This document shows, piece by piece, positions 5,274-62,769 of a DNA stretch of 64,000 bases. The number at the start of each line of letters is the position of its first letter. The first letter of the stretch is position 1. The position numbers and the translations under genes are program-made. The stretch comes from Chromatiales bacterium. Its GTDB lineage: Bacteria > Pseudomonadota > Gammaproteobacteria > SpSt-1174. Where the stretch lies: assembly GCA_014762505.1 (NCBI GenBank), contig JABURS010000029.1, positions 60,178-124,177 on the forward strand, written 5' to 3'. The notes below the pieces were generated by a model that saw only the letters and a program-made list of their open reading frames with translations, was not told the origin of the DNA and searched no databases.

Positions 5274-6308
5274 CTAACCTCGCTGTTCAAAGGACGAAGC
5301 CCCCGACCGCAGGATCGCGGCGAGCAGCGTGAGGAGCGACAGCAGCAGGATGGCCGCGACCGCGTTGTGCGCCACGGCCACCGACAGCGGCAGCTGGTAG
5401 ACGATGTTGGAAATCCCCAGCGTGACCTGCGCGCCCAGCACCAGCAGGACGACCAGGGCCGCGCCGCGCAGGCCGTCGCTACGGCGGCCGAAGAGCAGGC
5501 CAATCGCCAGGAGACCGAGGTAGAGCGCGGTGACCAGCGCCCCCAGTCGATGGGTGTAATGGATGGCAGTACGCGCAGGATGGTCCAGCACACCGAATTC
5601 GTAGTTCACGCCCAGGCCACGCCAGAGCACGAAGCCCTCACGAAAATCCATCTCGGGCCACCAGCGTGACTGACACTGGGGGAAGTCCGGGCAGGCCAGC
5701 GCCGCATAGTTGGAACTGGTCCAGCCGCCGAGCGCGATCTGCCCCACCAGGATCACCAGCCCCAGAGTCACCCAGGGCAGGAATCGCCGGTGCCCGTTGC
5801 GCGCGAGCAGCGGCGTTTCACGGCCGCCGATCGCCAGCCACCAGAGCAGGGAGAGCGTGGCGAAGCCACCCAGCAGATGCCCCATGACCACCACCGGCTT
5901 GAGCTGCAGGGTGACGGTCCACATGCCAAGCAGGGCCTGGAAGATCACCAGCCCCAGCAGCAGCAGCGGCAGCAGGACCGGTTGCCGGACGTGCTGGCGA
6001 TTCACCAGTGCCAGCACGGCCAGCCCCAGGATCAGCAGCCCCAGCGTGCCGGCGAAGTAGCGATGGACCATCTCCTTCCAGGCCTTGGGCGCCTCCACCG
6101 GACGCTCCGGGAAGGTGGCATTGGCGCGCGCCACCTCATGCTCGGCCTGCGGCACACCGAGGTGACCATAACAGCCAGGCCAGTCGGGACAACCCAGGCC
6201 GGCATCCGACAGCCGGGTGTAGGCCCCGAGGATCACCACCACTATGGCGAAGACCGTGGCGAACTGGGCGAGCCGGCGGAACAGCCGATGCAGACGGTCA
6301 CTAGCCAA
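5274..6308 (-). CDS. ctaA: haem A synthase (COX15/CtaA)
   Basis: 344 aa polytopic protein with the CPDWPGC and later CPDFPQC motifs typical of CtaA; precedes ctaB. Confidence 0.88.
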   Translation of the reverse strand: MASDRLHRLFRRLAQFATVFAIVVVILGAYTRLSDAGLGCPDWPGCYGHLGVPQAEHEVARANATFPERPVEAPKAWKEMVHRYFAGTLGLLILGLAVLALVNRQHVRQPVLLPLLLLGLVIFQALLGMWTVTLQLKPVVVMGHLLGGFATLSLLWWLAIGGRETPLLARNGHRRFLPWVTLGLVILVGQIALGGWTSSNYAALACPDFPQCQSRWWPEMDFREGFVLWRGLGVNYEFGVLDHPARTAIHYTHRLGALVTALYLGLLAIGLLFGRRSDGLRGAALVVLLVLGAQVTLGISNIVYQLPLSVAVAHNAVAAILLLSLLTLLAAILRSGASSFEQRG

Positions 6309-6903
6309 CTTTGGACACCTTCAGCAGACGTTTGAGATCCTTCATGAGGCCCTTGGCGGTCGCATTGTCGTCATAGCCGAGCACGATGTTGCCCATCGGA
6401 TCGACGAGATAGAGCTGCTGCGCCGGCAGCCCCGCCAGGCCGTCCTCGTCAGCGCCGAGTCTCGCCAGCGGCATGCCCGGGTGTTCCTGCAGGAGACGCT
6501 CGCCCGGGTGCGCATTCGGCGCGGCCTGGAGATAAAGCCGCTGGACGCGCGGGGCATCGCGCCCCAGCGCCAGGCGTGTCTGCCGGGCCTTGAACAGGGC
6601 CGCCTCGCAGGCCAGGTCGCAGGCCCCATCGGCATAGAACACCAGGGTCCAGTGTCCCTCCCAGTAATCGGCCGGCAGCACACTGCCGTTGCGGTCAACG
6701 GCCGGCAGACCTTCCACCGACACCAGCGGCTCGATCAGCCGGCCGTGGTTCGTGTGCGTCGGCGGCGCCCACTCCAGCACCATCATCAGCAGGTAGGCCA
6801 GCAGCAGGGGGCCGACGAAGGCGGCGATCACCCCCAGCAACAACCAGCGTGAACGCGTCACCGACACGCCTTCGCTTCTCAACACCTGTTCACTCATGTG
6901 CAT
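6301..6903 (-). CDS. membrane-anchored CxxxC (Sco/TlpA-like thioredoxin-fold?) protein of the aa3 oxidase assembly cluster
   Basis: 200 aa, one N-terminal TM helix, FYADGACDLAC motif; 8-nt overlap with ctaA and 14-nt overlap with surf1; occupies the slot of the uncharacterised gene between surf1 and ctaA in Pseudomonas-type clusters. Confidence 0.55.
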   Translation of the reverse strand: MHMSEQVLRSEGVSVTRSRWLLLGVIAAFVGPLLLAYLLMMVLEWAPPTHTNHGRLIEPLVSVEGLPAVDRNGSVLPADYWEGHWTLVFYADGACDLACEAALFKARQTRLALGRDAPRVQRLYLQAAPNAHPGERLLQEHPGMPLARLGADEDGLAGLPAQQLYLVDPMGNIVLGYDDNATAKGLMKDLKRLLKVSKVG

Positions 6904-7621
6904 CCTCTCGCTTGAGATTCACGACCACATAGATGACGACCAACGCCGCCGCCAGACCGAACCACTGCACTGCATAGGCAATGTGCTTGGCCGGCGTCAT
7001 GGGCACCACTTCCCAGTCGCGCAGATAGCCTGCGGGCGCCTCGGCCGACAGACGTATCGTCATCGGCAGCAGCGGCATATCGAGACGCTGCGCGAAGACA
7101 TCGAAATCCAGGCTCTGCACGATGCGCGGCCAGCCGGCAGCCGGGTCATCGACATCACCCAGGCTGTAGGCCTCGCCAAACGGGATGTAGATCCAGCCCT
7201 CTATCTCGACCGGCGCCCCGGTCACAGGGATATCCGGCAACACGTCGCGTCGCGCACCCATCGGCAGCCAGCCCCGGTTCACCAGCACCACCCGGCCATC
7301 GACGAGACGAAACGGCGTGAGCACCTCGAACCCCGCCTGACGATTGCGCACCTGGTTGTCGAGCAGGAATTGCCGCTCGGGGAGATACCGCCCGCGAAGG
7401 ACAACCCGGCGATAGCGCAAGGCATCGACATCTCCCGCAGAGAGCGCATCGGCATACAGGGACTGTCCCGCCCGGCTCGCCTCGAAACGCTCGAGCAATA
7501 CGCGCTTTTCCTCTGCGCGTCCGAGCTGCCAGAACCCCAGTGTCAGAAACAGGCCTAGCAACAGCATCACGGCAATACTCGGGAGCAGGCCAGGTGAGAA
7601 ACGGAACGGTCCAGGACGCAT
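6890..7621 (-). CDS. surf1: SURF1 family cytochrome oxidase assembly protein
   Basis: Two-TM topology with a periplasmic domain; likely start MRPGPFRF (track ORF starts 9 codons earlier at 7648). Confidence 0.8.
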   Translation of the reverse strand: MRPGPFRFSPGLLPSIAVMLLLGLFLTLGFWQLGRAEEKRVLLERFEASRAGQSLYADALSAGDVDALRYRRVVLRGRYLPERQFLLDNQVRNRQAGFEVLTPFRLVDGRVVLVNRGWLPMGARRDVLPDIPVTGAPVEIEGWIYIPFGEAYSLGDVDDPAAGWPRIVQSLDFDVFAQRLDMPLLPMTIRLSAEAPAGYLRDWEVVPMTPAKHIAYAVQWFGLAAALVVIYVVVNLKREDAHE

Positions 7622-7692
7622 GCCGCCGACGTCACAAGCCGCACACAACAGGCTGCGTTATACTTCTGCCTGCAATCCATCCGGAGCGTTCC

Positions 7693-7911
7693 ATGATCAT
7701 AAAAATCGCGATTCTGCTTTTGTTTGCGGTCATCCTCGGCAGCCTGGGTTCCGCATTGTTTTATCTGCTCAAGGACCAGGGGGATTCAAAACGCACCGCC
7801 CGGGCCCTGACCATACGCATCGCGGTCTCGATCGCCGCGTTTCTCCTGCTGCTCATCGGCTACTGGGCCGGCCTGATCGAGCCTCACAGCCCCTTCGCCC
7901 CGCCGCAGTAA
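7693..7911 (+). CDS. twin-transmembrane-helix small protein (DUF2909-like) embedded in the cox cluster, opposite orientation
   Basis: MIIKIAILLLFAVILGSLGSALFYLLKDQGDSKRTARALTIRIAVSIAAFLLLLIGYWAG...; two TM helices; ATG at 7693; the track ORF 7540 carries an implausible N-terminal extension. Confidence 0.6.
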   Translation: MIIKIAILLLFAVILGSLGSALFYLLKDQGDSKRTARALTIRIAVSIAAFLLLLIGYWAGLIEPHSPFAPPQ

Positions 7912-7922
7912 TCCGACCAGGG

Positions 7923-7948
7923 CAGCCCGGGGCGCATGCACGCCCCGG
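7923..7948. terminator. 10-bp GC hairpin (GCCCGGGGCG-catgca-CGCCCCGGGC) between the convergent small TM gene and coxC
   Basis: Perfect inverted repeat seen directly; no U-tract. Confidence 0.4.
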
Positions 7949-7958
7949 GCCGATCCCG

Positions 7959-8825
7959 CTACAGCCAGTAAACGAAGATAAACAGGCCGAGCCACACCAC
8001 GTCGACGAAGTGCCAGTACCAGGCTGCCGCCTCGAAGGCGAAGTGATTCTTCGATGTGAAATGGCCTTTCAGCACCCGGATCAGCATCACGGTCAGCATG
8101 ATGGCACCGATGGTCACGTGCAGACCGTGGAAGCCGGTGAGCATGAAGAAGGTAGAGCCGTAGATGCCCGAGCTCATCTTGAGATTGAGATCCGCATAGG
8201 CATGCATGTACTCATAGGCCTGGAAGCCCAGGAAGATCGCACCCAGCAACACGGTCAGCAGGAGCCCCAGCGCCAGCTGGCCGCGCTTGTCTTCCTTCAG
8301 CGCATGATGCGCCCAGGTGATGGTCGCACCCGAGGTGAGCAGGATGGCCGTATTGAGTGCCGGGATACCCCAGGCACCCATGATCTCGAACTGCCCGCCG
8401 ACCTCACCCGGACCGCCGGTCGGCCAGGCCGCCTCGAAGTTTGGCCAGAGCACGGCATTGGTCGACACGCCGTCGCCTTCGCCACCCAGCCACGGCACGG
8501 AATACTGCCGGGCGTAGAACAGCGCGCCGAAAAAGGCCGCGAAGAACATCACCTCCGAGAAGATGAACCAGAACATCCCCCAGCGGAAGCTGAGGTCCAC
8601 CTGCGCGTTGTAGGCGCCAGACTGGCTCTCCCTGATCACGGTGCCGAACCAGCCGAACATCATCACCAGCGTGATGACGACGCCCACCAGCATCAGCAAT
8701 TGGCCAAAATCCGCACCATTGAGCCAGGATGCAAAGCCCACCAGCAGGGTCGTGAGACCGACCGAGCCGACGATGGGCCAGTGGCTGCCATGCGGGATGT
8801 AATACTGCCCTTGTGCATGAGCCAT
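7959..8825 (-). CDS. coxC: aa3-type cytochrome c oxidase subunit III
   Basis: 288 aa, 7-TM subunit III pattern. Confidence 0.9.
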   Translation of the reverse strand: MAHAQGQYYIPHGSHWPIVGSVGLTTLLVGFASWLNGADFGQLLMLVGVVITLVMMFGWFGTVIRESQSGAYNAQVDLSFRWGMFWFIFSEVMFFAAFFGALFYARQYSVPWLGGEGDGVSTNAVLWPNFEAAWPTGGPGEVGGQFEIMGAWGIPALNTAILLTSGATITWAHHALKEDKRGQLALGLLLTVLLGAIFLGFQAYEYMHAYADLNLKMSSGIYGSTFFMLTGFHGLHVTIGAIMLTVMLIRVLKGHFTSKNHFAFEAAAWYWHFVDVVWLGLFIFVYWL

Positions 8826-8873
8826 GGTAAAACCCCCTTTGGTTGTTATCCCATCCGTTGCACGGATCCCGCC

Positions 8874-9419
8874 CTAGTCGTGCAGGGCAATCTTTTGATC
8901 CGTATCAAAAAACGTATATGAAAGGGTGATGGTGGTGACATGGGCCGGCAGCTTCGGGTTGATCACGAAGCTGACCGGCATGTCACGGCCCTCCCCTGCC
9001 TGAAACAGTTGCTGCGTAAAACAGAAACACTCGGTCTTGCTGAAATAGCGGGAGGCGGCATTGGGCGCCACGCTGGGAATGGCCTGGCCGGTGACATCCC
9101 TGTCCGTGAGATTACGGGCATGAAAATTCACCGTGTAGACCTTGCCGGGATGTACCTTCATCTTCGTCACTTCCGGCGCAAACTCCCAACGCAAACCCTG
9201 ATTGAGACTGGTCACGAATTCGACCACGATCTCGCGATCCGGATCGAAGGCATAACTCGCCACCACGGACTCATCGACCACGCCCGTCTTGCCGTTCAAC
9301 CCGGTGATCTCGCAGAAGACGTTATAAAGCGGCACCAGGGCAAAACCGAAACCGAACATCCCCAGCACGAAGATGCCGAGCTTGAACGGGGTTCGGTAGG
9401 TTGCGTAGCGCCCTTTCAT
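8874..9419 (-). CDS. ctaG: cytochrome c oxidase assembly protein Cox11/CtaG
   Basis: MKGRYATYRTPFKLGIFVLGMFGF...; CFCF copper motif; single TM. Confidence 0.88.
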   Translation of the reverse strand: MKGRYATYRTPFKLGIFVLGMFGFGFALVPLYNVFCEITGLNGKTGVVDESVVASYAFDPDREIVVEFVTSLNQGLRWEFAPEVTKMKVHPGKVYTVNFHARNLTDRDVTGQAIPSVAPNAASRYFSKTECFCFTQQLFQAGEGRDMPVSFVINPKLPAHVTTITLSYTFFDTDQKIALHD

Positions 9420-17301: not shown

Positions 17302-18822
<1,521 letters not shown>

Positions 18823-32926: not shown

Positions 32927-37390
<4,464 letters not shown>

Positions 37391-47948: not shown

Positions 47949-48542
47949 TTACAGCATGCCCTTGGTCGAGGGCGTGATGCCCTGCATGCGCGGATCCGGC
48001 TCCACGGCCATGCGCAGGGCGCGGCCAAAGGCCTTGAAGATGGTCTCGGCGATGTGGTGGGCGTTGCGACCCCGGATCGAGTCGATATGCACCGTCGCCC
48101 GGGCGTGATTGACGAAGCCCTGGAAGAACTCGCTGATGAGGTCCACGTCGAAATCGCCGATGCGCGCACGCGGGTAGTCGACATGGTAATCGAGCCCGGG
48201 ACGCCCGGAAAAATCGATCACCACGCGCGACAGCGCCTCGTCCAGCGGCACGTAGGCATGGCCGTAGCGACGAATGCCCTTCTTGTCGCCCAGCGCCTTG
48301 GCGAAGGCCTCGCCCAGCGTAATGCCGACGTCCTCCACCGTGTGGTGCGCGTCGATGTGCAGGTCGCCCTCGGCCTTCAGGTCGATATCGATCAGACCAT
48401 GGCGAGCCACCTGGTCGAGCATGTGCTCGAAGAACGGGATGCCGGTGGCAAAGGAGGCCTTGCCGGTGCCGTCGAGGTTGACGGTGGTGGTGATCTTCGT
48501 TTCCAGGGTGTCGCGGGAAACGGACGCGTTGCGTTCAGCCAT
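47949..48542 (-). CDS. hisB: imidazoleglycerol-phosphate dehydratase
   Basis: [27 protein letters not shown]...; track ORF carries a 119-aa spurious extension. Confidence 0.9.
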
Positions 48543-48636
48543 GGGTCCTGCGGATTCGGGCATTGAAATAGGGTCGAAAATGATACCACAGATGTGGCCA
48601 CGGCAATCAGCAACCAGCGGCCCGGATGCCCGGCTG

Positions 48637-48650
48637 TTGATAAGGATCAG
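48637..48650. promoter_or_regulatory. FNR box TTGATaaggATCAG (9/10) in the hisB/anr divergent region
   Basis: Read directly, about 50 bp upstream of the anr ATG; CATAAT at 48661-48666. Confidence 0.4.
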
Positions 48651-48699
48651 CCAATCTAGCCATAATGCCCTCATACATCGCGATCGCGGGAACTGCGGC

Positions 48700-49464
48700 A
48701 TGTCGGACAAGGCATCTAGAAATATCGTCAGCATCGCCGGCCTCAAGCAGGCCTGCAAGCACTGCAGCCTGCACGACCTGTGCCTGCCGATGGGCGTGGC
48801 CGACGCCGACCTGGACGCCCTGGAGTCCATGCTCAAGCCCCGCCGCCCCGTGCAGCGCAACGAACACCTGTATCGCGCCGGCGACCGCCTGACCTCCATC
48901 TACGCCGTGCGCTCGGGTTCGGTGAAGACCTACACCCTGACCAACGATGGTCGCGAGCAGATCACCGGCTTCCACCTGCCGGGCGAGCTGATCGGGCTGG
49001 ACGCGATCAACGACAACTCCCACCCCTGCTCGGCGCGCGCGCTGGAGACCGCCAGTGTCTGCGAGATGCCCTTCGACCAGCTCGAGACGCTGGCGATGCG
49101 CATCCCGGGCCTGCAGCACCAGCTGTTCCGCATCATGAGCCGCGAACTCAAGAGCGACGAGCAGTTCATGACCCTGCTCGGCAAGAAGAACGCCGACGAA
49201 CGCCTCGCCTCCTTCCTGGTCGGTCTGTCCAACCGCTTCAAGGAGCGCGGCTACTCCCCCACCGAGTTCAACCTGAGCATGTCCCGCAACGACATCGCCA
49301 ACTACCTGGGGCTCGCAGTGGAGACCGTCTCGCGCCTGTTCTCGCGCCTGCAGGCCGACGGCATCATGACCGTGGACCGCAAGCTGATCCACATCACCGA
49401 CCTCTCCCGCCTCAACCAGCTCGCCGGCACCAGCTGCGAGCGACCGATGAACCGCACCGGCTGA
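48700..49464 (+). CDS. anr: FNR/Anr-family anaerobic transcriptional regulator (Crp/Fnr superfamily)
   Basis: 254 aa; N-terminal Cys cluster [10 protein letters not shown] plus a downstream Cys, cNMP-like fold, C-terminal HTH; track ORF 48274 is a long false extension. Confidence 0.88.
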
Positions 49465-49485: not shown

Positions 49486-50175
49486 CTAGAGCAGATTCCG
49501 CGGCGGGAAGCCCTGCGCGGCAGGCAACCGCTCGGCGCGCGTCACCGCCTCGCCCAGCATCCGATCCGTGGCCACCGGTCCGAACAACTCGCAGGCACGC
49601 ACGTAGAGACGGTGCAGCAGCTCCCGCCAGGTCGCGGGGGCGGCATCCACGGCCAGTTCGCCGGCCTGCTGCATGAGCCAGCGATTCACCGCCTGCGCCT
49701 CGCGTGGCGGCAGATGCAGCTCGCCCAGCCGGTCCATCACGTCCACGCGCACCTTGAGGGCCCGCTCTGCATCGATGGCCTCCAGGGCGTCCAGCAGCCC
49801 TCCGGCAACGACCACGAAGACCGCCCCCGCCGAGGACCGGGCCGCCGCAGAGGCCACCTCCGTCGCCCGCGACGACGGCTCGGACGCAGCGGGGGCGACC
49901 CGTTCGCCCGGGTCCGGCAGCAGCTGCGCCTCATCGGCCGTCAGCGCCCGCATCAGGCTGCGATACACCTCGCCGTGTCGCGCCTCCAGCCCGGTCTGCG
50001 CACAGACCGCGGAGACGAAGCCATGCAGGACGTAGACCGGCCCGTCCGCATAGCGGACCGACCACAGCAACAGGGCATCCTGCAGCTGGGCCTCGCCAAG
50101 AAAGGGCTTCAATCCGGTATAGACGGCACGGCGGCGACGCACACGCTCGGCACTGGCACCCTTGTCGACGGCCAT
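49486..50175 (-). CDS. hypothetical protein coupled to amtB (3-nt gap)
   Basis: 229 aa, soluble, no recognised motif; start ATG 3 nt after the amtB TAG. Confidence 0.5.
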   Translation of the reverse strand: MAVDKGASAERVRRRRAVYTGLKPFLGEAQLQDALLLWSVRYADGPVYVLHGFVSAVCAQTGLEARHGEVYRSLMRALTADEAQLLPDPGERVAPAASEPSSRATEVASAAARSSAGAVFVVVAGGLLDALEAIDAERALKVRVDVMDRLGELHLPPREAQAVNRWLMQQAGELAVDAAPATWRELLHRLYVRACELFGPVATDRMLGEAVTRAERLPAAQGFPPRNLL

Positions 50176-50178
50176 GAC

Positions 50179-51477
50179 CTACTCCTTGCCCGCGTGCAGG
50201 ATCTCGCGCTGGAACTCGGGATACCCCACCTCGTGATGCTCGCTGAAATCGAGCCCGCGCTGTTCATCCAGGGTGCTCGCCCGCAGGCCGATCACCCGGT
50301 TGATGACCAGGTACATGACCAGTGCCAGCGGAAAGGCCCAGAGAAAGCCGGCCACCACGCCCAGCGCCTGGATGGCGATCTGCACCGGATTGAACAGGTC
50401 GCCGGCCACGAACATGCCGGCGGCCAGCGTACCCCAGACACCGGCGAACCCGTGCACCGGGACGGCACCGACGACATCGTCCAGCCCGAAGGCCTCGAGC
50501 AGATCGGTGCCCAGCACGACCACGAACCCCGCCACCAGACCCGTGAGCACGGCGAACAACGGCTCCATCACGGCGCAACCGGCGGTGATGGCCACCAACC
50601 CGCCGATGGCGCCGTTGACGTTCTGCGTGAGCAGGATGGGGCGACGCAGGATCAGCAGCGTCAGCAACACGCCCACCGCCCCCGCGGCCGCAGCGAGGTG
50701 GGTATTCAGCGCGATCAGGCCGATACTGGTATCGGCCGCCGTGGTGCTGCCGGCATTGAAGCCGAACCAGCCGAGCCAGAGGATGAAGCCGCCCAGCGCC
50801 ACCTGGGTCAGGTTGTGCCCGGGCAGTGCGCGGGACTCCCCCTGCTCGCCGAATCGCCCCAGGCGTGGACCGAGCACGATGATCCCCGCCAGCGCCACCC
50901 AGGCCCCCACGGAATGCACCACCGTGGAGCCGGCGAAATCGATGAAGCCGAGCTGCGCCAGCCAGCCCTCGCCGTCGTAGAGACTGCCCCAGACCCAGCT
51001 GCCGAACACCGGGTAGATGAACGCGCAGATCATCACGGCACCGGCCAGGTAGGCCTGGTAACGGGTGCGCTCGGCCATGGCACCGCTGGCGATGGTGACG
51101 GCCGTGGCGGCGAACATGGTCTGGAAGAACAGCAGGCTGTAGTCCAGGTGTTCGCCGTTACCGAGCAGGAAATGGCTCTGGCCGAACAGGCCGGTGGGAT
51201 TGATGCCGAACATCAGGCCATACCCCACCAGCCAGAAGGCGAGGCTGCCCAGGCAGACGTCCATGAAGTTCTTCATCACCACATTGACGGCATTCTTGGC
51301 ACGGGACATGCCGCTTTCGAGCAGGGCAAACCCGGCCTGCATGAAGAACACCAGGGCCCCGGCGGTGACCACCCAGAGGGTATCGATGGCCGGCTTGAGG
51401 TCCGCCTCGGCGGACCAGGCAGCGGATGGCAGGAGAGACAGCAGGCAGAGCAGCGACGTCAGTCGGCGTGGGGTCAT
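50179..51477 (-). CDS. amtB: ammonium transporter
   Basis: 432 aa, signal peptide plus 11 TM, Amt/MEP signature. Confidence 0.93.
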   Translation of the reverse strand: MTPRRLTSLLCLLSLLPSAAWSAEADLKPAIDTLWVVTAGALVFFMQAGFALLESGMSRAKNAVNVVMKNFMDVCLGSLAFWLVGYGLMFGINPTGLFGQSHFLLGNGEHLDYSLLFFQTMFAATAVTIASGAMAERTRYQAYLAGAVMICAFIYPVFGSWVWGSLYDGEGWLAQLGFIDFAGSTVVHSVGAWVALAGIIVLGPRLGRFGEQGESRALPGHNLTQVALGGFILWLGWFGFNAGSTTAADTSIGLIALNTHLAAAAGAVGVLLTLLILRRPILLTQNVNGAIGGLVAITAGCAVMEPLFAVLTGLVAGFVVVLGTDLLEAFGLDDVVGAVPVHGFAGVWGTLAAGMFVAGDLFNPVQIAIQALGVVAGFLWAFPLALVMYLVINRVIGLRASTLDEQRGLDFSEHHEVGYPEFQREILHAGKE

Positions 51478-51518
51478 GGCGATTCCGTTCCCTAGTCATT
51501 GTCATGTGACAAGGGAAT

Positions 51519-51534
51519 TGCAAGCGGCATGCCA
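51519..51534 (-). promoter_or_regulatory. sigma54 promoter TGGCATgccgcTTGCA for amtB
   Basis: rc of 51519-51534 matches the TGGCAC-N5-TTGCW spacing exactly; about 30 nt from the -12 element to the amtB ATG. Confidence 0.6.
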
Positions 51535-51598
51535 GCGCCCGCCCGCAGTGCAAATGGCGCCCCGGAATCACCCATCGGAAAGATATCAGGTCCGGCGC

Positions 51599-51615
51599 TG
51601 CACCAGCCGGCTGCA
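51599..51615. promoter_or_regulatory. NtrC-type enhancer site TGCACCagccgGCTGCA
   Basis: 11/12 match to the TGCACC-N5-GGTGCA dyad, about 80 bp upstream of the sigma54 -24 element. Confidence 0.4.
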
Positions 51616-51663: not shown

Positions 51664-52110
51664 TCAGGCCGGCGGCACCTGCAGCCAGAAGGTGACCGGC
51701 CCGTTGTTCACCAGCCCGACCCGCATGTCGGCACCGAAGCGGCCGGCGGCCACCGGGGCATGCCGGGCGCAGGCCTGGTCGAGCAGGTAACCGAACAGGC
51801 GTTCGCCCTCGGCAGGCTCGGCGGCCGGCGTAAAACTCGGGCGCATCCCCTTGCGGGTATCGGCCGCGAGCGTGAACTGCGGCACCAGCAGGAGCCCGCC
51901 GCCGGTGTCCGCGAGCGAGTGGTTCATGCGTCCCGTCGCATCCTCGAAGACGCGGTAGCCGAGCAGCCGCGCCAGCAGGCGATCGGCCTGGGCCTCGGTG
52001 TCACCCCGCTCCACCCCGACCAGCACCAGCAGGCCGGCGTCGATGGCACCCACCACCTCCCCCGCGACCGTGACGCTGGCCGAATCCACGCGCTGCAGCA
52101 GGCCGATCAT
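51664..52110 (-). CDS. dtd: D-aminoacyl-tRNA deacylase
   Basis: Near full-length similarity to E. coli Dtd ([15 protein letters not shown]...GPVTFWLQV). Confidence 0.93.
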
Positions 52111-53078
52111 GCCGGCGGCAACGCGGCCCGCACGCCCAACCGGTCGGCGATATCGACCGTGGCCCCGACCAGGGCCCGGGTGATGCCGGGCTCGCCGGCG
52201 GCATGCCCGGCATCATCGATGATGCGCAGCGCGGCCTCCGGCCAGGCACGATGCAGGGCCCAGGCCTGGTCGACGGGACAGATCACGTCGTAGCGCCCGT
52301 GCACGATCACGCCCGGGATACCTGACAGGCGATGCGCATCCCGCAGCAACTGATCGGGCTCGAGGAAGGCGTGATTGACGAAGTAGTGGCACTCGATGCG
52401 CGCAAGGCTCAGGGCCACGTAGGGGTCGTCGAAGTGGGCCACCACCGAGGGGCTCTCGACCAGCGTGGCGGTGCGCCCCTCCCACAACGACCAGGCCTTG
52501 GCCGCGGCCATGCGGGCCACCTCGTCCTCGCCGGTGAGGCGCCGATGGTAGGCATGCAGGAGGTCGTCCCGCTCGGCCGGCGGGATGGGTTCGAGATAGG
52601 CCTCCCACAGATCGGGGAAGAGCCGGCTGGTACCGGCCTGGTAGAACCAGTGGATGTCCTCGTCACGGCAGAGGAAGATGCCGCGCAGGATCAGCCCCAG
52701 CACCCGTTCCGGATGGGTCTCGGCATAGGCCAGTCCCAGCGTCGAGCCCCAGGAACCGCCGAACACCACCCAGCGCTCGATGCCCAGGTGCTCGCGGATG
52801 GCCTCGATGTCGCGCACGAGGTCCCAGGTGGTGTTGTGCGCCAGCGCGGCATGCGGGGTGGAACGCCCGCAGCCACGCTGGTCGAACAGCACGATACGAT
52901 AGGCCTCGGGATCGAAGAAGCGCCGGTGATACGGCTCGCAGCCGCTGCCCGGCCCGCCGTGCAGAAACAGCACGGGCAACCCGTCCGGGTTGCCGCATTC
53001 CTCGAGATAGAGCTGGTGGCCGTGGTCCACGGCCAGCTGCGTGCTGTAATGGGGCCGTATCTCCGGGTAGAGCGTCAT
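52107..53078 (-). CDS. pip: proline iminopeptidase
   Basis: alpha/beta hydrolase with GGSWGSTL nucleophile elbow; 323 aa. Confidence 0.88.
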
Positions 53079-53105: not shown

Positions 53106-53666
53106 CTAATCATGCACGGGCGCGCCCCTGAAACCAATCGCCGCCGCGATGCCGCCCAGCAGCAGTCCCAGCAGGATGAGGATCGGGCCGATACCCGTAT
53201 CCAGCACCACGCCGGCCCAGCCGATGTTGAACACCATGAGATACAGCGCACCCGAGTGCAGCAGCGTGCCCACGATGAAGACCCAGCTGATCAGCTGCTT
53301 GAACCAGACCGGCACGGCCAGGAACACCAGCACCACACCCACGGCAATGTTGAGCAGGGCCTCCAGGTTGCCATGGGCATGGGGACCGCTCTTGATGGCG
53401 TCGATGGGCGCGCGGGCATTGAGGCCGGTATTCAGGGCGAGAATGGCCTCGGCATTGGCGCGGGCGATCGCGTCCGCACTCAGCGTCTCCAGCGTGGTCT
53501 CGTCCATGAATCCGCCATCCACCCGCAGCCGCAGCTCCGACATCGCGACATTGCGCACCGCCTGCGCCTCGCCCACGGCGTCGAACTGGCTGACCATATA
53601 GGGCCCGAGGGCAGCGGTGAGGACCAGAAACAGAAAACCGAACACGACGTTCTTGCGACCGATCAT
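53106..53666 (-). CDS. hypothetical 4-TM membrane protein
   Basis: 186 aa, AAGGAGG SD; function not recognised. Confidence 0.55.
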   Translation of the reverse strand: MIGRKNVVFGFLFLVLTAALGPYMVSQFDAVGEAQAVRNVAMSELRLRVDGGFMDETTLETLSADAIARANAEAILALNTGLNARAPIDAIKSGPHAHGNLEALLNIAVGVVLVFLAVPVWFKQLISWVFIVGTLLHSGALYLMVFNIGWAGVVLDTGIGPILILLGLLLGGIAAAIGFRGAPVHD

Positions 53667-58593: not shown

Positions 58594-59969
58594 TTCTCGT
58601 TACCTGCCTGTTTCGGATCGATCCCCAGCGCGCGCATCTTACGATAAAGGTGCGTGCGTTCCATCCCCACGCGCTCGGCGAGCCGGCTCACGTTGCCGCC
58701 GACGCGGTCGAGCTGCTGCAGGAGATAATCACGCTCGAAGCGCTCGCGCGCCTCGCGCAGTGGCAGGTCGAGAAACGCATCTTCGACCGGCATCGATGCT
58801 GCCTCGGCCTCGCGCCGCTGCCCGAGGGCCGCCTCGACTTCATCCGCACCGATCTCCTCGCTGGTACCCAGAATCAGCAATCGTTGCACCAGGTTGCGCA
58901 GCTCGCGCACATTGCCCGGCCAGTCGTAGTGCACCAGGCGATTCTGTGCACGCAGGGAGAACCGTCGATAGGGCAGACCTTCCTGGCTGTTGAGCAGATC
59001 GACGTAGAAGTTCAGCAGTTCAGGCACATCCGCGGCATGCTCGCGCAGCGGCGGCACGACCAGCGGTACCACGTTGAGCCGGTAATAGAGGTCGTCGCGA
59101 AAACGCCCGGACCTGACCGCCTCGCGCAGATCGTGATCGGTGGAGGCGATGATCTGCGCGGTGAGTTCGACCCGCTCGTTGCCGCCCACCCGGGTGAAGG
59201 CCTCGCCTTCCAGGGCGTCCAGCAGGCGCCCCTGGGTCTGCAGATCCATGTCACCGACACCGCCGAGAAACAGCACGCCGCCGCCCGCCTGTTCCAGCAG
59301 GCCGTACTGGATGCGGTCGCCCTGCTGGCTGCCAAACAGTTCCTCGGCCGAGGTGTCGGGCGACAGCGAGGCCACCGTGACGGCGACGAAGGGCCGGTCG
59401 CGACGGGCACTGCGCGAGTGGAGATAACGCGCCACTGTCTCCTTGCCGGCACCCGGCTCGCCCGTGATGAGGACGCAGGTGGCATGCTGGGCGAGACGTC
59501 CGACCTGATCGCGCAGCTTGCGCATCACATCGCTCGCGCCGACCGGCTCGATGACGCGCCCCATCTCGCGCTTGAGTCCCTGGTTCTCGCGCGTCAGCTG
59601 CTCGGTGCGCAGGGCGCGGCTCACGGTGATCAGCAGCTTGGCCAGCGAGATGGGCTTCTCGATGAAGTCGTAGGCCCCCAGGCGGGTGGCCTCCACTGCG
59701 GTCTCCACGGTGGCATGGCCCGACATCATGATCACCGGACAGGGCAGGCCACCGCTCTCCCGCCACTCCTTGAGCAGGCTGACGCCATCCATGTCCGGCA
59801 TCCAGATGTCGAGCAGGATGAGATCCGGCCGACGGTGCCGGCGCTCCTCGCGCGCGGCGGCGGCATTCTCCGCCACGGCCACTTCATAGCCCTCGTCCTC
59901 GAGGATCTCGCGCACGAGGTTACGGATATCCGGTTCATCGTCCACGACGAGGATGCGGTCTGCGGTCAT
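58590..59969 (-). CDS. ntrX: NtrX-like response regulator (REC + AAA+ + Fis HTH), GAFTGA motif absent
   Basis: [17 protein letters not shown]...; Walker A GEPGAGKE; the ELFG...GAFTGA region is replaced by [14 protein letters not shown]; C-terminal HTH. Track ORF N-extended to 60245. Confidence 0.8.
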
Positions 59970-62191
59970 GATTCCTTCTCTTCGTCCGGGACAGCGGTGA
60001 TGCCGTTCACCAGTTCGTCGGCGACGCGCACCACCGGCAGGCGAATGACGATGCGTGCCCCGCCCTGCAGGCGGTTCTCCGCCCACACGATACCACCATG
60101 TTCCTCGACGATTTTCTTGACGATGGCCAGCCCCAGGCCGGTGCCCTTGATCTTGCCAGTGACGTAGGGCTCGAACAGGTTGTGCAGCATCTCCTGCGGC
60201 ACGCCGGGGCCCGTGTCGGTGGTGGCGAACTCGACGAAGCGGCAACCGGTCTCCTCCATGCAGCGGGTGGAGAGCAGCAGCTCGCCACCGCCCTGCCCCT
60301 CCATGGCATCCAGTGCATTCTGCACCAGGTTGTTGAGCAGCTGTCGCAGGCGACCGACGTCCGCCTCGATATAGGGCATGCTGGTATCCAGGTCCAGTCG
60401 TAGGCGCACGCGTCGCCTGTTGGAGCGATAGAGGTCGGCAACCTCGCTGATCAGGCTGTTGAAGTCGAGCGTGGCCAGCTGCATGGCCGGTGCGCGGGCA
60501 TAATCGCTGAAGGCGTTGACCATGGCCTTCATGGCCTCCACCTGCTGCACGATGGTGCGCGTGGAGCGGGCCAGCATGTCAGCATCCCTCTCCCCGAGCT
60601 GCGGCATGAGCTTGCGCTGCAGACGCTCGGCCGAGAGCTGTATGGGTGTGAGCGGGTTCTTGATCTCGTGGGCCAGGCGCCGGGCCACTTCACCCCAGGC
60701 CGCATCGCGCTGCGCCCGGATCAGCTCGGTCACGTCGTCGAAGACGATGACGTGACCGCCGCGCATGGCGTTCTGGTCGGAGAGCCGCACCCCGCGGCAG
60801 ATCAGGGTGCGCGAGCCCGCCCCGCCGAACAGCAGCACCTGCTCCTCCCACTCGCTGGCATCGCCCAGCAGCATGGGGAGGATGCTCTCGTAGAAGCGCT
60901 CCATGCCCTTGAAGTGTCGTGCGATATCGGCCAGCGGCCGGCCGATGTGGTGCTCGAGTTCGAAACCGAAGATCTGGTCTGCCGCCGCGTTGTTCATGCG
61001 CAGCACCAGGTTGCGATCCAGTGTCAGCACGCCGGACGAGAGGTGGCGCAGCACGGCCTCGAGATAGGTGCGCTGGCGCTCGAGCTGCCCGCGGCTGCGG
61101 TCGGCCTCGTCCCGCGCCGAGGCCAGACGGGCGGTCATCTGGTTGAAGGAGCGCACCAGAAAACCCAGTTCGTCGCGGTTGCCCACCGGCAGCTTCTTGG
61201 AGAACTCGCCGGCCGCCACCGCCTTGGTCCCCTCGGCCAGCTCGCGGATGGGCGCCATCAGCCGACGCGAGGAATAAAAGGCCGTCCACACGGCGAACAG
61301 CACCGACAGCAGCAACACCAGCGAGAGGGTGATGGTGTAGCTCTGGATCAGCGGCTTGCGCACATAGGCCAGCTCCTTGTAGGCCTCGAAGGCACCGCTG
61401 ACGCTGTCGGCCAGGCGGCCGATGCGCGGATCGACGCCGAACAGCGCCTGCAGCATGCGCTGTTCGGAAATGGGATCGGCGCGCGGCACCGGCACCACCA
61501 CGCGTACCCGCAGGCCACCCTCGGCCAGCGGCTCCAGGCCCACGTAGTTCTGCCCCTGCTTGAGCATGAGCACGATCTCCTCGGCCGGGAACTGCGGCAC
61601 CACCAGCGTGGTGTCGTCGCTGCTCACGGCGATGATGCGCGTCACCTCGCCGAACAGCGTTAGTTCGGAGGCCTCCACACGCTGCCGCTGCTCGCTGAGT
61701 GTGGCCGGCGCCATCGGGGGGGTGACATAGCGCAGCTCCCGGGCCAGCGCCTCCACCTGCTTGAGGTGGCGGCGCAGGCGGTAATCGAGCGAGGTGCGGC
61801 TGAGATCCAGGGCGTCATTGAGCGCCCCCTCCACACGCACGTCGAACCAGCTGTCGATACCGCGTTCGATGAACTTGACGGAAAAGTAGTAGACGATCGA
61901 AACGGGGGCCAGCGAGAGGACGATGAACATCACCACCAGGCGCAGGGTCAGCCGTGAGCCGGCCTCCCGCTGCATCACGCGACGCACCGTGTCGAAGAGG
62001 TTCACGCCGATCATCACCGTAAGCACCATCAGCACGATGGTGTTGATGAGCAGCAACCACACGTACAGCCGGCCGAAGCGCTCCGAGTTCTGGGCCGCGT
62101 CGCTCATCACGTAGAGCGAGATCAGCAGCAGGGCGAACAGCCCGAGCATGGGCAGTACGCCGGTCGCGAATCGCCTCAGGGCAGAGACCAT
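59966..62191 (-). CDS. ntrY: NtrY-like sensor histidine kinase (HAMP-PAS-HisKA-HATPase)
   Basis: TM segments, PAS, H-box HEIKNPLTPI, G-boxes. Confidence 0.85.
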   Translation of the reverse strand: MVSALRRFATGVLPMLGLFALLLISLYVMSDAAQNSERFGRLYVWLLLINTIVLMVLTVMIGVNLFDTVRRVMQREAGSRLTLRLVVMFIVLSLAPVSIVYYFSVKFIERGIDSWFDVRVEGALNDALDLSRTSLDYRLRRHLKQVEALARELRYVTPPMAPATLSEQRQRVEASELTLFGEVTRIIAVSSDDTTLVVPQFPAEEIVLMLKQGQNYVGLEPLAEGGLRVRVVVPVPRADPISEQRMLQALFGVDPRIGRLADSVSGAFEAYKELAYVRKPLIQSYTITLSLVLLLSVLFAVWTAFYSSRRLMAPIRELAEGTKAVAAGEFSKKLPVGNRDELGFLVRSFNQMTARLASARDEADRSRGQLERQRTYLEAVLRHLSSGVLTLDRNLVLRMNNAAADQIFGFELEHHIGRPLADIARHFKGMERFYESILPMLLGDASEWEEQVLLFGGAGSRTLICRGVRLSDQNAMRGGHVIVFDDVTELIRAQRDAAWGEVARRLAHEIKNPLTPIQLSAERLQRKLMPQLGERDADMLARSTRTIVQQVEAMKAMVNAFSDYARAPAMQLATLDFNSLISEVADLYRSNRRRVRLRLDLDTSMPYIEADVGRLRQLLNNLVQNALDAMEGQGGGELLLSTRCMEETGCRFVEFATTDTGPGVPQEMLHNLFEPYVTGKIKGTGLGLAIVKKIVEEHGGIVWAENRLQGGARIVIRLPVVRVADELVNGITAVPDEEKES

Positions 62192-62769
62192 TCGTACCAC
62201 TCGCTGGCGGGACGCCAGTCTTCGGAGGCATAGGCGCGCACCCGCAGGGGCAGGGGCAGCTGGTCGATGTCCAGGCGGGCCCGCAGGCCGCCCCGGTAGT
62301 GTTCCCCGGGCAGCAGCAGGGACGTATCGATCAGCGGGAAGTCACGCAGGGCACCCAGGGCATAGAGGGCGGAGCCGAGGGAGGGATAGGTGGTCTGCAC
62401 GCCGGTATTGAGGTTCTGCACGACGTAGAGCCGGCTCAGGGTGTAGTAGCCCAGGCGATAGCGCTGCACCAGCTCGGCCACGTCCTCGTTGACCCACCAG
62501 TCGCGCAGGCGCTGCACACGCAGCTCCATCTCGATGACCAGGTCCACCCCATTGTGCAGGGCGTCCCGCAGCACCGGATTCAGGCTGTAGCGCACGTCGG
62601 CGTCGATGCGGATGACGCCGTCGACGTTGCGTGGATAGACGGCATTGACGACGAACGGCGGGGCCTCCTGTGCCGCCAGGGCAAGGGGCGAACCGACCAG
62701 GCCCGCGAGCAGGCCCAGTCCGATCAGGGCCCTGCGCAGTCGCGGCCAGTTGTGGGACGTATGCGTCAA
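62176..62769 (-). CDS. DUF4390-like periplasmic protein
   Basis: 197 aa with signal peptide, positioned between rsmB and ntrY as is typical of DUF4390 genes. Confidence 0.6.
   Translation of the reverse strand: MTHTSHNWPRLRRALIGLGLLAGLVGSPLALAAQEAPPFVVNAVYPRNVDGVIRIDADVRYSLNPVLRDALHNGVDLVIEMELRVQRLRDWWVNEDVAELVQRYRLGYYTLSRLYVVQNLNTGVQTTYPSLGSALYALGALRDFPLIDTSLLLPGEHYRGGLRARLDIDQLPLPLRVRAYASEDWRPASEWYEWSLP

Follow-up and report, generated by a model that had tools for sequence, protein, structure and literature searches.

A conserved gene pair of an ammonium transporter and an unannotated, non-PII protein in a Chromatiales bacterium and its relatives

A 64-kb stretch of contig JABURS010000029.1 from a Chromatiales bacterium (assembly GCA_014762505.1; hereafter "the window") carries an ammonium transporter gene of the Amt family that is followed at once by a gene for a soluble, all-helical protein of 229 amino acids (aa), here named X. 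We found that X is a genuine protein under constraint and has a large family without annotation, that its linkage to one clade of Amt genes is strict and exclusive, and that the two genes are co-inherited. X is thus probably a dedicated functional partner of this Amt clade. More specifically, we propose, with a probability of roughly 0.4, that it regulates the transporter post-translationally from the cytoplasmic side, much as GlnK does, as suggested by the gene linkage.

The glnK-amtB pair is among the most conserved regulatory gene pairs in prokaryotes and is the paradigm for the shut-off of ammonium uptake. An operon of an Amt and a cytoplasmic partner is therefore already known, and what is probably new here is a dedicated partner other than PII encoded in one operon with the transporter.

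Linkage and co-inheritance of amt and X

The genes of the amt locus are located on the minus strand (Table 1). At the junction of the two genes the sequence reads GGC AAG GAG TAG GTC ATG GCC, so that the amt stop codon TAG is separated from the ATG of X by 3 nucleotides (nt) and the ribosome-binding site AAGGAG of X is contained in the end of amt. The same arrangement was observed at the related loci L001, L006 and L087. A preliminary description of this DNA had given the same 3-nt spacing, had named dtd as the upstream neighbour and had reported that no PII gene accompanies amt. The first point can be read directly from the sequence, and the second is borne out by a strong Tyr_Deacylase match. 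As for the third, tblastn searches with GlnK and GlnB of E. coli as queries revealed no PII gene in the 64-kb window (best E = 0.34). The absence of glnK is to be read as the absence of a glnK linked to this amt, within the window and the flanks of related loci.

Look-ups centred on the X family placed a gene with an Ammonium_transp domain directly upstream of X, on the same strand, in 12 of 12 cases. The window clade and Thioalkalivibrio sulfidiphilus share the whole neighbourhood (trkAH ... pip-dtd-amt-X-fnr-hisBHAF), and such synteny within a close clade proves little alone. Eight more divergent members of the family, with identities to the window X down to ~20%, were found in unrelated neighbourhoods with an Amt gene still adjoining. 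These neighbourhoods included an ABC/MacB system, an OmpA-like gene, GST or acetyltransferase genes, malate synthase together with leuA, an AP endonuclease, and glycosyltransferases. At L093 (1-10654), the pair is located between urea carboxylase/allophanate hydrolase and a nickel transporter with a ureDABCEF cluster. This locus represents a nitrogen-scavenging island, in which the amt stop overlaps the X start.

An Amt-centred sample was obtained by scanning GTDB species genomes with the window Amt, which gave 80 loci, and X was sought in all open reading frames (ORFs) of these by profile search. X was present directly downstream of amt at the nine loci with the Amts most similar to that of the window (L007-L015, 51-64% identity), which originate from Polycyclovorans, Methylibium, Aquabacterium, Sphaerotilus, Methylophilaceae, other Burkholderiales and a metagenome-assembled genome (MAG) of Pirellulaceae. 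The profile search detected it at none of the remaining 71 loci. The fetched flanks, which extend up to 6 kb and less where a contig ends, contained PII genes at none of the X-linked loci versus 41 of the 71 others. The preliminary description had allowed for the gene being absent from the amtB loci of relatives; it is present there both in the family-centred look-ups (12/12) and at the closest Amt-centred loci (9/9). At one of these, L009 from an uncultured betaproteobacterium MAG, the X homologue is split over two frames (7212-7757 and 7624-8082), which may reflect a frameshift, an assembly error or a pseudogene.

Across 14 non-redundant X loci, amt and X were the only genes in common. No third conserved gene was found in the module at these loci, where only alternative-frame shadows of amt recur. 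At most loci the X start was placed -8 to +15 nt from the amt stop; two loci had longer spacers of 40 and 94 nt. A metagenome scan with the alignment of close X homologues returned 2 close loci only, and a plasmid collection gave no match.

In a neighbour-joining tree of 107 Amt sequences, the X-linked Amts formed a single clade, which was recovered in every one of 200 bootstrap replicates. Its members come from Thioalkalivibrio, Polycyclovorans, Cellvibrionales, Methylophilaceae, Burkholderiales, Sulfuriferula and the Pirellulaceae MAG, so that it covers Gamma- and Betaproteobacteria plus this MAG. Among 16 Amt/X pairs, the pairwise identities of the two proteins were correlated (Mantel p = 2e-4), with r = 0.83 for all pairs and r = 0.60 when the close clade was left out, and X diverges much faster than Amt (median identity 23% vs 60%). 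What is telling is that the two genes have stayed together over deep divergence, while spreading across classes and being moved repeatedly to new neighbourhoods.

The X protein family

A first set of homologues was retrieved with a word-indexed search and comprised 9 clusters (55-100% identity), all of them hypothetical proteins of Chromatiales and Gammaproteobacteria MAGs. The close orthologues are 55-92% identical and of equal length, and their alignment revealed conserved N- and C-terminal blocks with a variable low-complexity linker in between. When 1.84 billion representatives (clusters at 50% identity) were searched with an X profile, the family comprised 686 clusters at E <= 1e-3 and 377 at E <= 1e-10. 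Among the 150 matches listed, nearly all were 196-280 aa long and matched end to end, and four shorter entries (114-168 aa) look like fragments. The gene therefore belongs to a large unannotated family and not to an unrelated housekeeping family, an option that had been raised in the preliminary description. Named members are found in T. sulfidiphilus HL-EbGr7 (ACL71310.1), Methylotenera mobilis (WP_019896564.1), Sulfuriferula sp. AH1 (ARU30589.1), Zhongshania borealis (GAA4090439.1) and Alteromonadaceae bacterium Bs31, all as "hypothetical protein".

The 229-aa protein had been described as lacking a recognisable domain, and searches of Pfam, NCBIfam and PHROG with the window X were indeed negative. 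The same was true of 118 diverse members against Pfam and of 23 members against NCBIfam, and an assignment of X to a known domain was rejected on this basis. The structure prediction that had been suggested for the protein yielded a confident AlphaFold2 model (118-sequence alignment; predicted local distance difference test score, pLDDT, 90.1), which is all-alpha. In it, residues 5-79 form an N-domain of four helices and residues 103-228 a helical C-domain, and the stretch between them (~80-102) is disordered. For the window X as a whole, the N-domain is assigned to residues ~1-90, the variable, disordered linker to ~91-102 and the C-domain to ~103-229. The C-domain carries the motif Y-V-x-x-C-E-x-x-G-P-V-x-x-D. 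Members of the family share a length of ~200-280 aa, an N-terminal R-R-R-A-x-Y/F-x-x-L helix, W38, and D-P ahead of the linker, all of which are present in the window X. Only G199 and D204 are invariant across the family, and at least 90% of members retain L22, W38, P89, W166, Y191, C195 and P200. A transmembrane-like segment is absent in most members. X does not resemble the P-II domain (~112 aa, ferredoxin-like fold with T-loop), as indicated by the lack of a Pfam or NCBIfam match and by the all-alpha model.

Properties of the X-linked Amt

The window Amt scored well above the cut-offs of PF00909 (376.5 bits, cut-off 23.2) and TIGR00836 (392.9 bits, cut-off 343.3), and below the equivalog cut-offs for the E. 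coli-type AmtB (NF007947) and the marine subtype (TIGR03644). Its pore motifs are kept, with W163/S244 as selectivity filter, F122/F240 as Phe gate and H188/H342 as twin-His, aligned to W144/S227, F103/F223 and H171/H326 of Ks-Amt5 (6eu6; residue list from PMC5764959). The best solved relatives are the sensors Ks-Amt5 (314 bits, E = 1.4e-92) and Sd-Amt1 (8qj3, 286 bits), with the transporters Af-Amt1 (191 bits) and E. coli AmtB (~134 bits) far behind.

These matches bear on a rival explanation in which X is a signal transducer: the Amt would be an ammonium receptor or transceptor working through its N1/N2 sites, and X would relay its occupied or empty state, as in a Ks-Amt5 or Sd-Amt1 split into two proteins. 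With these sensors (Pfluger et al. 2018, PMC5764959; Pfluger et al. 2024, PMC11152129) the explanation has in common that a cytoplasmic module would be coupled to the C-terminus of the Amt. According to Pfluger et al. (2024, PMC11152129), fused modules are missing from some of the Amts that bear N1/N2, and a dual role as transporter and receptor is possible for some. The two X domains on a flexible linker, as modelled, would suit an adaptor. The N1/N2 ammonium ligands of Ks-Amt5 are Q24, E31, N47, D50, T51, T109 and T112 (PMC5764959). The window Amt has Q47, E54, N70, D73, V74, T128 and S131 at these positions, i.e. five identical residues, one conservative exchange and one replacement. However, the same residues are equally conserved, and dominate, in the PII-linked Amts of the sample, so that the set is neither a mark of the X-linked clade nor diagnostic of a sensor, and the N1/N2 cluster includes bona fide transporters (Pfluger et al. 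2024, PMC11152129).

The phylogenetic evidence for a sensor was likewise unstable. In one neighbour-joining tree, the X-linked clade was sister to fusions of Amt with PAS and histidine kinase (HK) or with PAS, GGDEF and EAL domains (70% bootstrap), but the support collapsed to 41% once Ks-Amt5 and Sd-Amt1 were added. The fusions L059 and L086 then group with these two sensors, apart from the X-linked clade; the former is an Amt-PAS-HisKA-HATPase protein of a cyanobacterial MAG (5947-8769) and the latter an Amt-PAS-GGDEF-EAL protein of Neiella holothuriorum (5920-9051). Ks-Amt5 itself is no nearer to X-linked than to PII-linked Amts (43% vs 44% identity), and the phylogeny thus does not place the X-linked clade specifically with the sensors.

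The pore of Ks-Amt5 is blocked by the bulky residues F27, Y30 and F34 (PMC5764959). The window Amt has F50, L53 and M57 at these positions, so that one of the three blocking residues is kept and two are smaller. Across the clade, L and M are each found in 16 of 20 sequences, and the M is the same as in the transporter Af-Amt1. No fused transducer module is present in the 432-aa protein, which ends 37 residues after transmembrane helix 11 and matches only Ammonium_transp in Pfam. The intact pore motifs together with the smaller residues at the blocking positions fit a working transporter that would need gating.

Considering the undiagnostic N1/N2 set, the transporters within the N1/N2 cluster, the smaller pore residues and the missing fused output domain, the window Amt cannot be called a sensor from these matches. 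The candidate assignment "Amt is a sensor, since its best PDB matches are sensors" was rejected as a specific claim on account of the shared N1/N2 residues, the equidistance of Ks-Amt5 and the unstable grouping with the fusions. X, for its part, contains no HK, GGDEF, HAMP or PAS domain or other recognisable signalling domain, no third conserved gene accompanies the pair, and a promoter of the nitrogen-starvation type, as described below, better suits a scavenging transporter than a sensor. We therefore consider a transducer role of X unlikely.

Promoter and putative nitrogen control of the operon

A sigma54 promoter and an NtrC dyad had both been noted upstream of amt in the preliminary description. 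The -24/-12 element is the sole match to TGGCAY-N5-TTGCW in the 64 kb, where 0.09 would be expected by chance, and it is conserved in the related loci L001, L003, L006 and L087. In T. sulfidiphilus (L096), the corresponding element was recognised by eye as TGGCATGGGCCTTGCT. At L010, L089 and L093, which are distant X-linked loci, similar sigma54 elements precede amt by 54-66 nt. The dyad has one mismatch to TGCACC-N5-GGTGCA and is the best such site of the window, yet sites with up to two mismatches were no rarer than chance (7 found vs 5.9 expected). Canonical GCACC-N5-GGTGC dyads were found at the equivalent place in L003 (GCACCGTCCTGGTGC) and in T. sulfidiphilus L096 (GCACCGACCCGGTGC). No sigma70-like promoter was found between 49300 and 51800.

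An ntrYX pair is encoded upstream of trkA-trkH, 7 kb from the sigma54 promoter of amt, and the activator could therefore be either NtrC or NtrX. By established knowledge, sigma54/Ntr control of either kind implies a PII-dependent Ntr circuit elsewhere in the genome.

The dtd-amt intergenic region of T. sulfidiphilus (CP001339.1, L096 ~8410-8520) is ~90 nt longer than that of the window. The extra sequence contains a long inverted repeat of tandem AT-rich heptamers (ttcaaaa / ttttgaa) just downstream of dtd, and this repeat is absent from the window and the other relatives.

Proposed role of X

The proposal that X is a GlnK-like regulator starts from what the sequences show directly: promoter elements upstream of amt, the layout of the operon, a genuine and large X family, its strict and exclusive linkage to one Amt clade, and the co-inheritance of the pair. 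Under this proposal, amt and X would form a two-gene operon whose sigma54 promoter is turned on by an NtrC-type activator under nitrogen limitation, and X would be produced together with the transporter, with which the 3-nt gap and the ribosome-binding site within the 3' end of amt are consistent. X would then bind to the cytoplasmic face or the C-terminal region of its own Amt trimer and control transport post-translationally, for instance by shutting off uptake after an ammonium upshift, as GlnK does for canonical AmtB. The physical binding of X to Amt, the direction of regulation and the signal sensed by X are what we infer from the gene linkage. The preliminary description had suggested that the 229-aa protein might be an alternative regulator or interactor of the transporter, and our results support this at the level of a conserved and exclusive gene partnership.

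The likeness to glnK-amtB is considerable. In both cases, an Amt and a small soluble cytoplasmic protein are encoded in a tightly coupled two-gene operon that is typically under Ntr/sigma54 control and is kept as a unit across phyla, and the window Amt has the selectivity filter, Phe gate, twin-His and C-terminal cytoplasmic region. In E. coli AmtB, the cytoplasmic face and C-terminal region constitute the surface used by GlnK. Among 18 residues specific to the X-linked Amt clade, eight are located in cytoplasmic loops or the C-terminal region, namely R208, L282, T284, V335 (P in most others) and the C-terminal Q406, R407, G418 and E421. This distribution, on the face used by GlnK, is suggestive. 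The differences are equally clear: X is not a PII protein, and its prediction as an all-alpha, two-domain protein contrasts with the ferredoxin-like fold, trimeric state and T-loop of GlnK. X is also double GlnK in size, fast-evolving and without a known ligand or modification site, and the X-linked loci have no PII gene in the fetched flanks.

A precedent for additional dedicated Amt partners is sP36 of Methanosarcina mazei, a non-PII binder of AmtB1 that contributes to the arrest of transport upon a nitrogen upshift (Habenicht et al. 2023, PMC10714827). That protein is 61 aa long, archaeal and acts together with GlnK1, whereas X is ~220 aa long, bacterial and found at loci without PII, and X shows no sequence relation to it. 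In the searched literature on Amt genes without glnK or with other partners, sP36 was the sole non-PII partner found, and neither the X family nor the pairing of amt with X was described.

Several observations weigh against a GlnK-like role. No ligand-binding or enzymatic motif and no PII-like feature was recognised in X, and X evolves fast, unlike the highly conserved PII. The cytoplasmic enrichment of clade-specific Amt residues is modest. The sigma54 motif was not found at every X-linked locus (13/22 at a loose threshold in a simple scan). Since the X-linked Amts form one clade, their mutual exclusion with PII is essentially one ancient event, not many, and a GlnK encoded elsewhere could still regulate this Amt. 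A bolder version, in which X represents a new-fold class of Amt regulators that replaces the near-universal PII control in a clade and senses without uridylylation or binding of 2-oxoglutarate/ATP, or else a detachable output module that makes the Amt a transceptor, appears rather doubtful to us.

Alternatively, X could serve this Amt clade specifically in assembly, stability or membrane targeting, being needed for folding, trimerisation or protection of the transporter without regulating it. The strict one-to-one linkage and the tight translational coupling would agree with this, and fast evolution with few invariant residues is expected of a dedicated binder free of catalytic constraint; a ligand-binding or enzymatic motif was not found in X. 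However, other Amt clades need no such factor, including close PII-linked relatives at ~50% identity, chaperones are usually not encoded in an obligate 1:1 operon downstream of their client, and the Amt sequence, with all core motifs kept, gives no sign of an unusual fold. We regard an assembly factor as quite improbable.

Finally, X could be unrelated to transport, e.g. a nitrogen-starvation, small-molecule-binding or enzymatic protein riding in an Ntr-controlled operon. Apparently unrelated nitrogen-starvation genes are known from amt operons: in the marine Methylophilaceae isolate OM43 strain NB0046, the gene most strongly induced under nutrient depletion, ~1,900-fold, encodes a "conserved hypothetical protein" and is thought by its position to share an operon with the genes of an ammonium transporter and of PII (NB46_00249-00251; PMC5120137). 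The invariant or nearly invariant polar and aromatic residues of X (W38, W166, Y191, C195 and D204) could form a small-molecule site, judging from the alignment. Such a passenger would, however, neither stay with one Amt clade at gaps of a few bases over at least three classes and many unrelated neighbourhoods nor co-diverge with the Amt, and X was never seen without an Amt in the 12 look-ups, which makes this explanation very improbable.

Neighbouring genes

X is followed by 21 nt and then by the 3' end of a convergent fnr/crp-family gene. As called, this ORF encodes 396 aa and overlaps hisB on the opposite strand. Its Pfam domains are found from residue 191 on and homologues in relatives are 224-254 aa long, and its start is therefore probably near 48700. 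A hydrophobic protein of 186 aa without a Pfam match is encoded just upstream of pip-dtd. It is found at the same place in L001 (4550-5110) and L003 (253-813) and is absent in L006 and T. sulfidiphilus L096. The glutamate synthase genes of the window are split, with the gltD-like small subunit and the large gltB 14 kb apart and no gltBD operon.

Table 1. Coordinates of genes and sequence elements in the 64-kb window
Feature	Position	Strand	Remarks
gltD-like gene	17386-18822	+	glutamate synthase, small subunit
gltB	32927-37390	+	glutamate synthase, large subunit
fnr/crp-family ORF	48274-49464	+	as called
X	49486-50175	-	229 aa, soluble, all-helical, unannotated family
amt	50179-51477	-	432 aa, Amt family, N-terminal signal peptide; PF00909 E = 1.7e-112
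Shine-Dalgarno AAGGAG for X	50182-50187	-	within the last two sense codons of amt
sigma54 -24/-12 element TGGCATGCCGCTTGCA	51519-51534	-	ends 42 nt before amt ATG
dtd-amt intergenic region			186 nt
NtrC-type dyad TGCACCAGCCGGCTGCA	51599-51615		candidate upstream activator site, ~65 nt upstream of the -24 element
dtd	51664-52110	-	Tyr_Deacylase E = 2.5e-51; upstream neighbour of amt
pip	52107-53078	-	upstream of dtd
Hydrophobic protein gene	53106-53666	-	186 aa
NtrX-like sigma54 activator	58590 to ~59960	-	receiver, Sigma54_activat, HTH_8
NtrY-like sensor kinase	59966-62200	-	NtrY_N, HAMP, PAS, HisKA, HATPase

Implications

Through the linkage to Amt, at least 686 clusters labelled "hypothetical protein" can be placed in a functional context. 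The X-linked Amt clade includes sulfur oxidisers, methylotrophs and marine Cellvibrionales, and the question of what X does is directly testable, since the pair is present in cultured, fully sequenced organisms. Cultured carriers of the pair are T. sulfidiphilus HL-EbGr7, M. mobilis, Sulfuriferula sp. AH1 and Z. borealis. The finding is of interest to specialists in nitrogen regulation, as a monophyletic and widespread Amt clade that consistently has another, unannotated partner would point to a second way of controlling Amt, or of signalling through it, that has so far escaped study.

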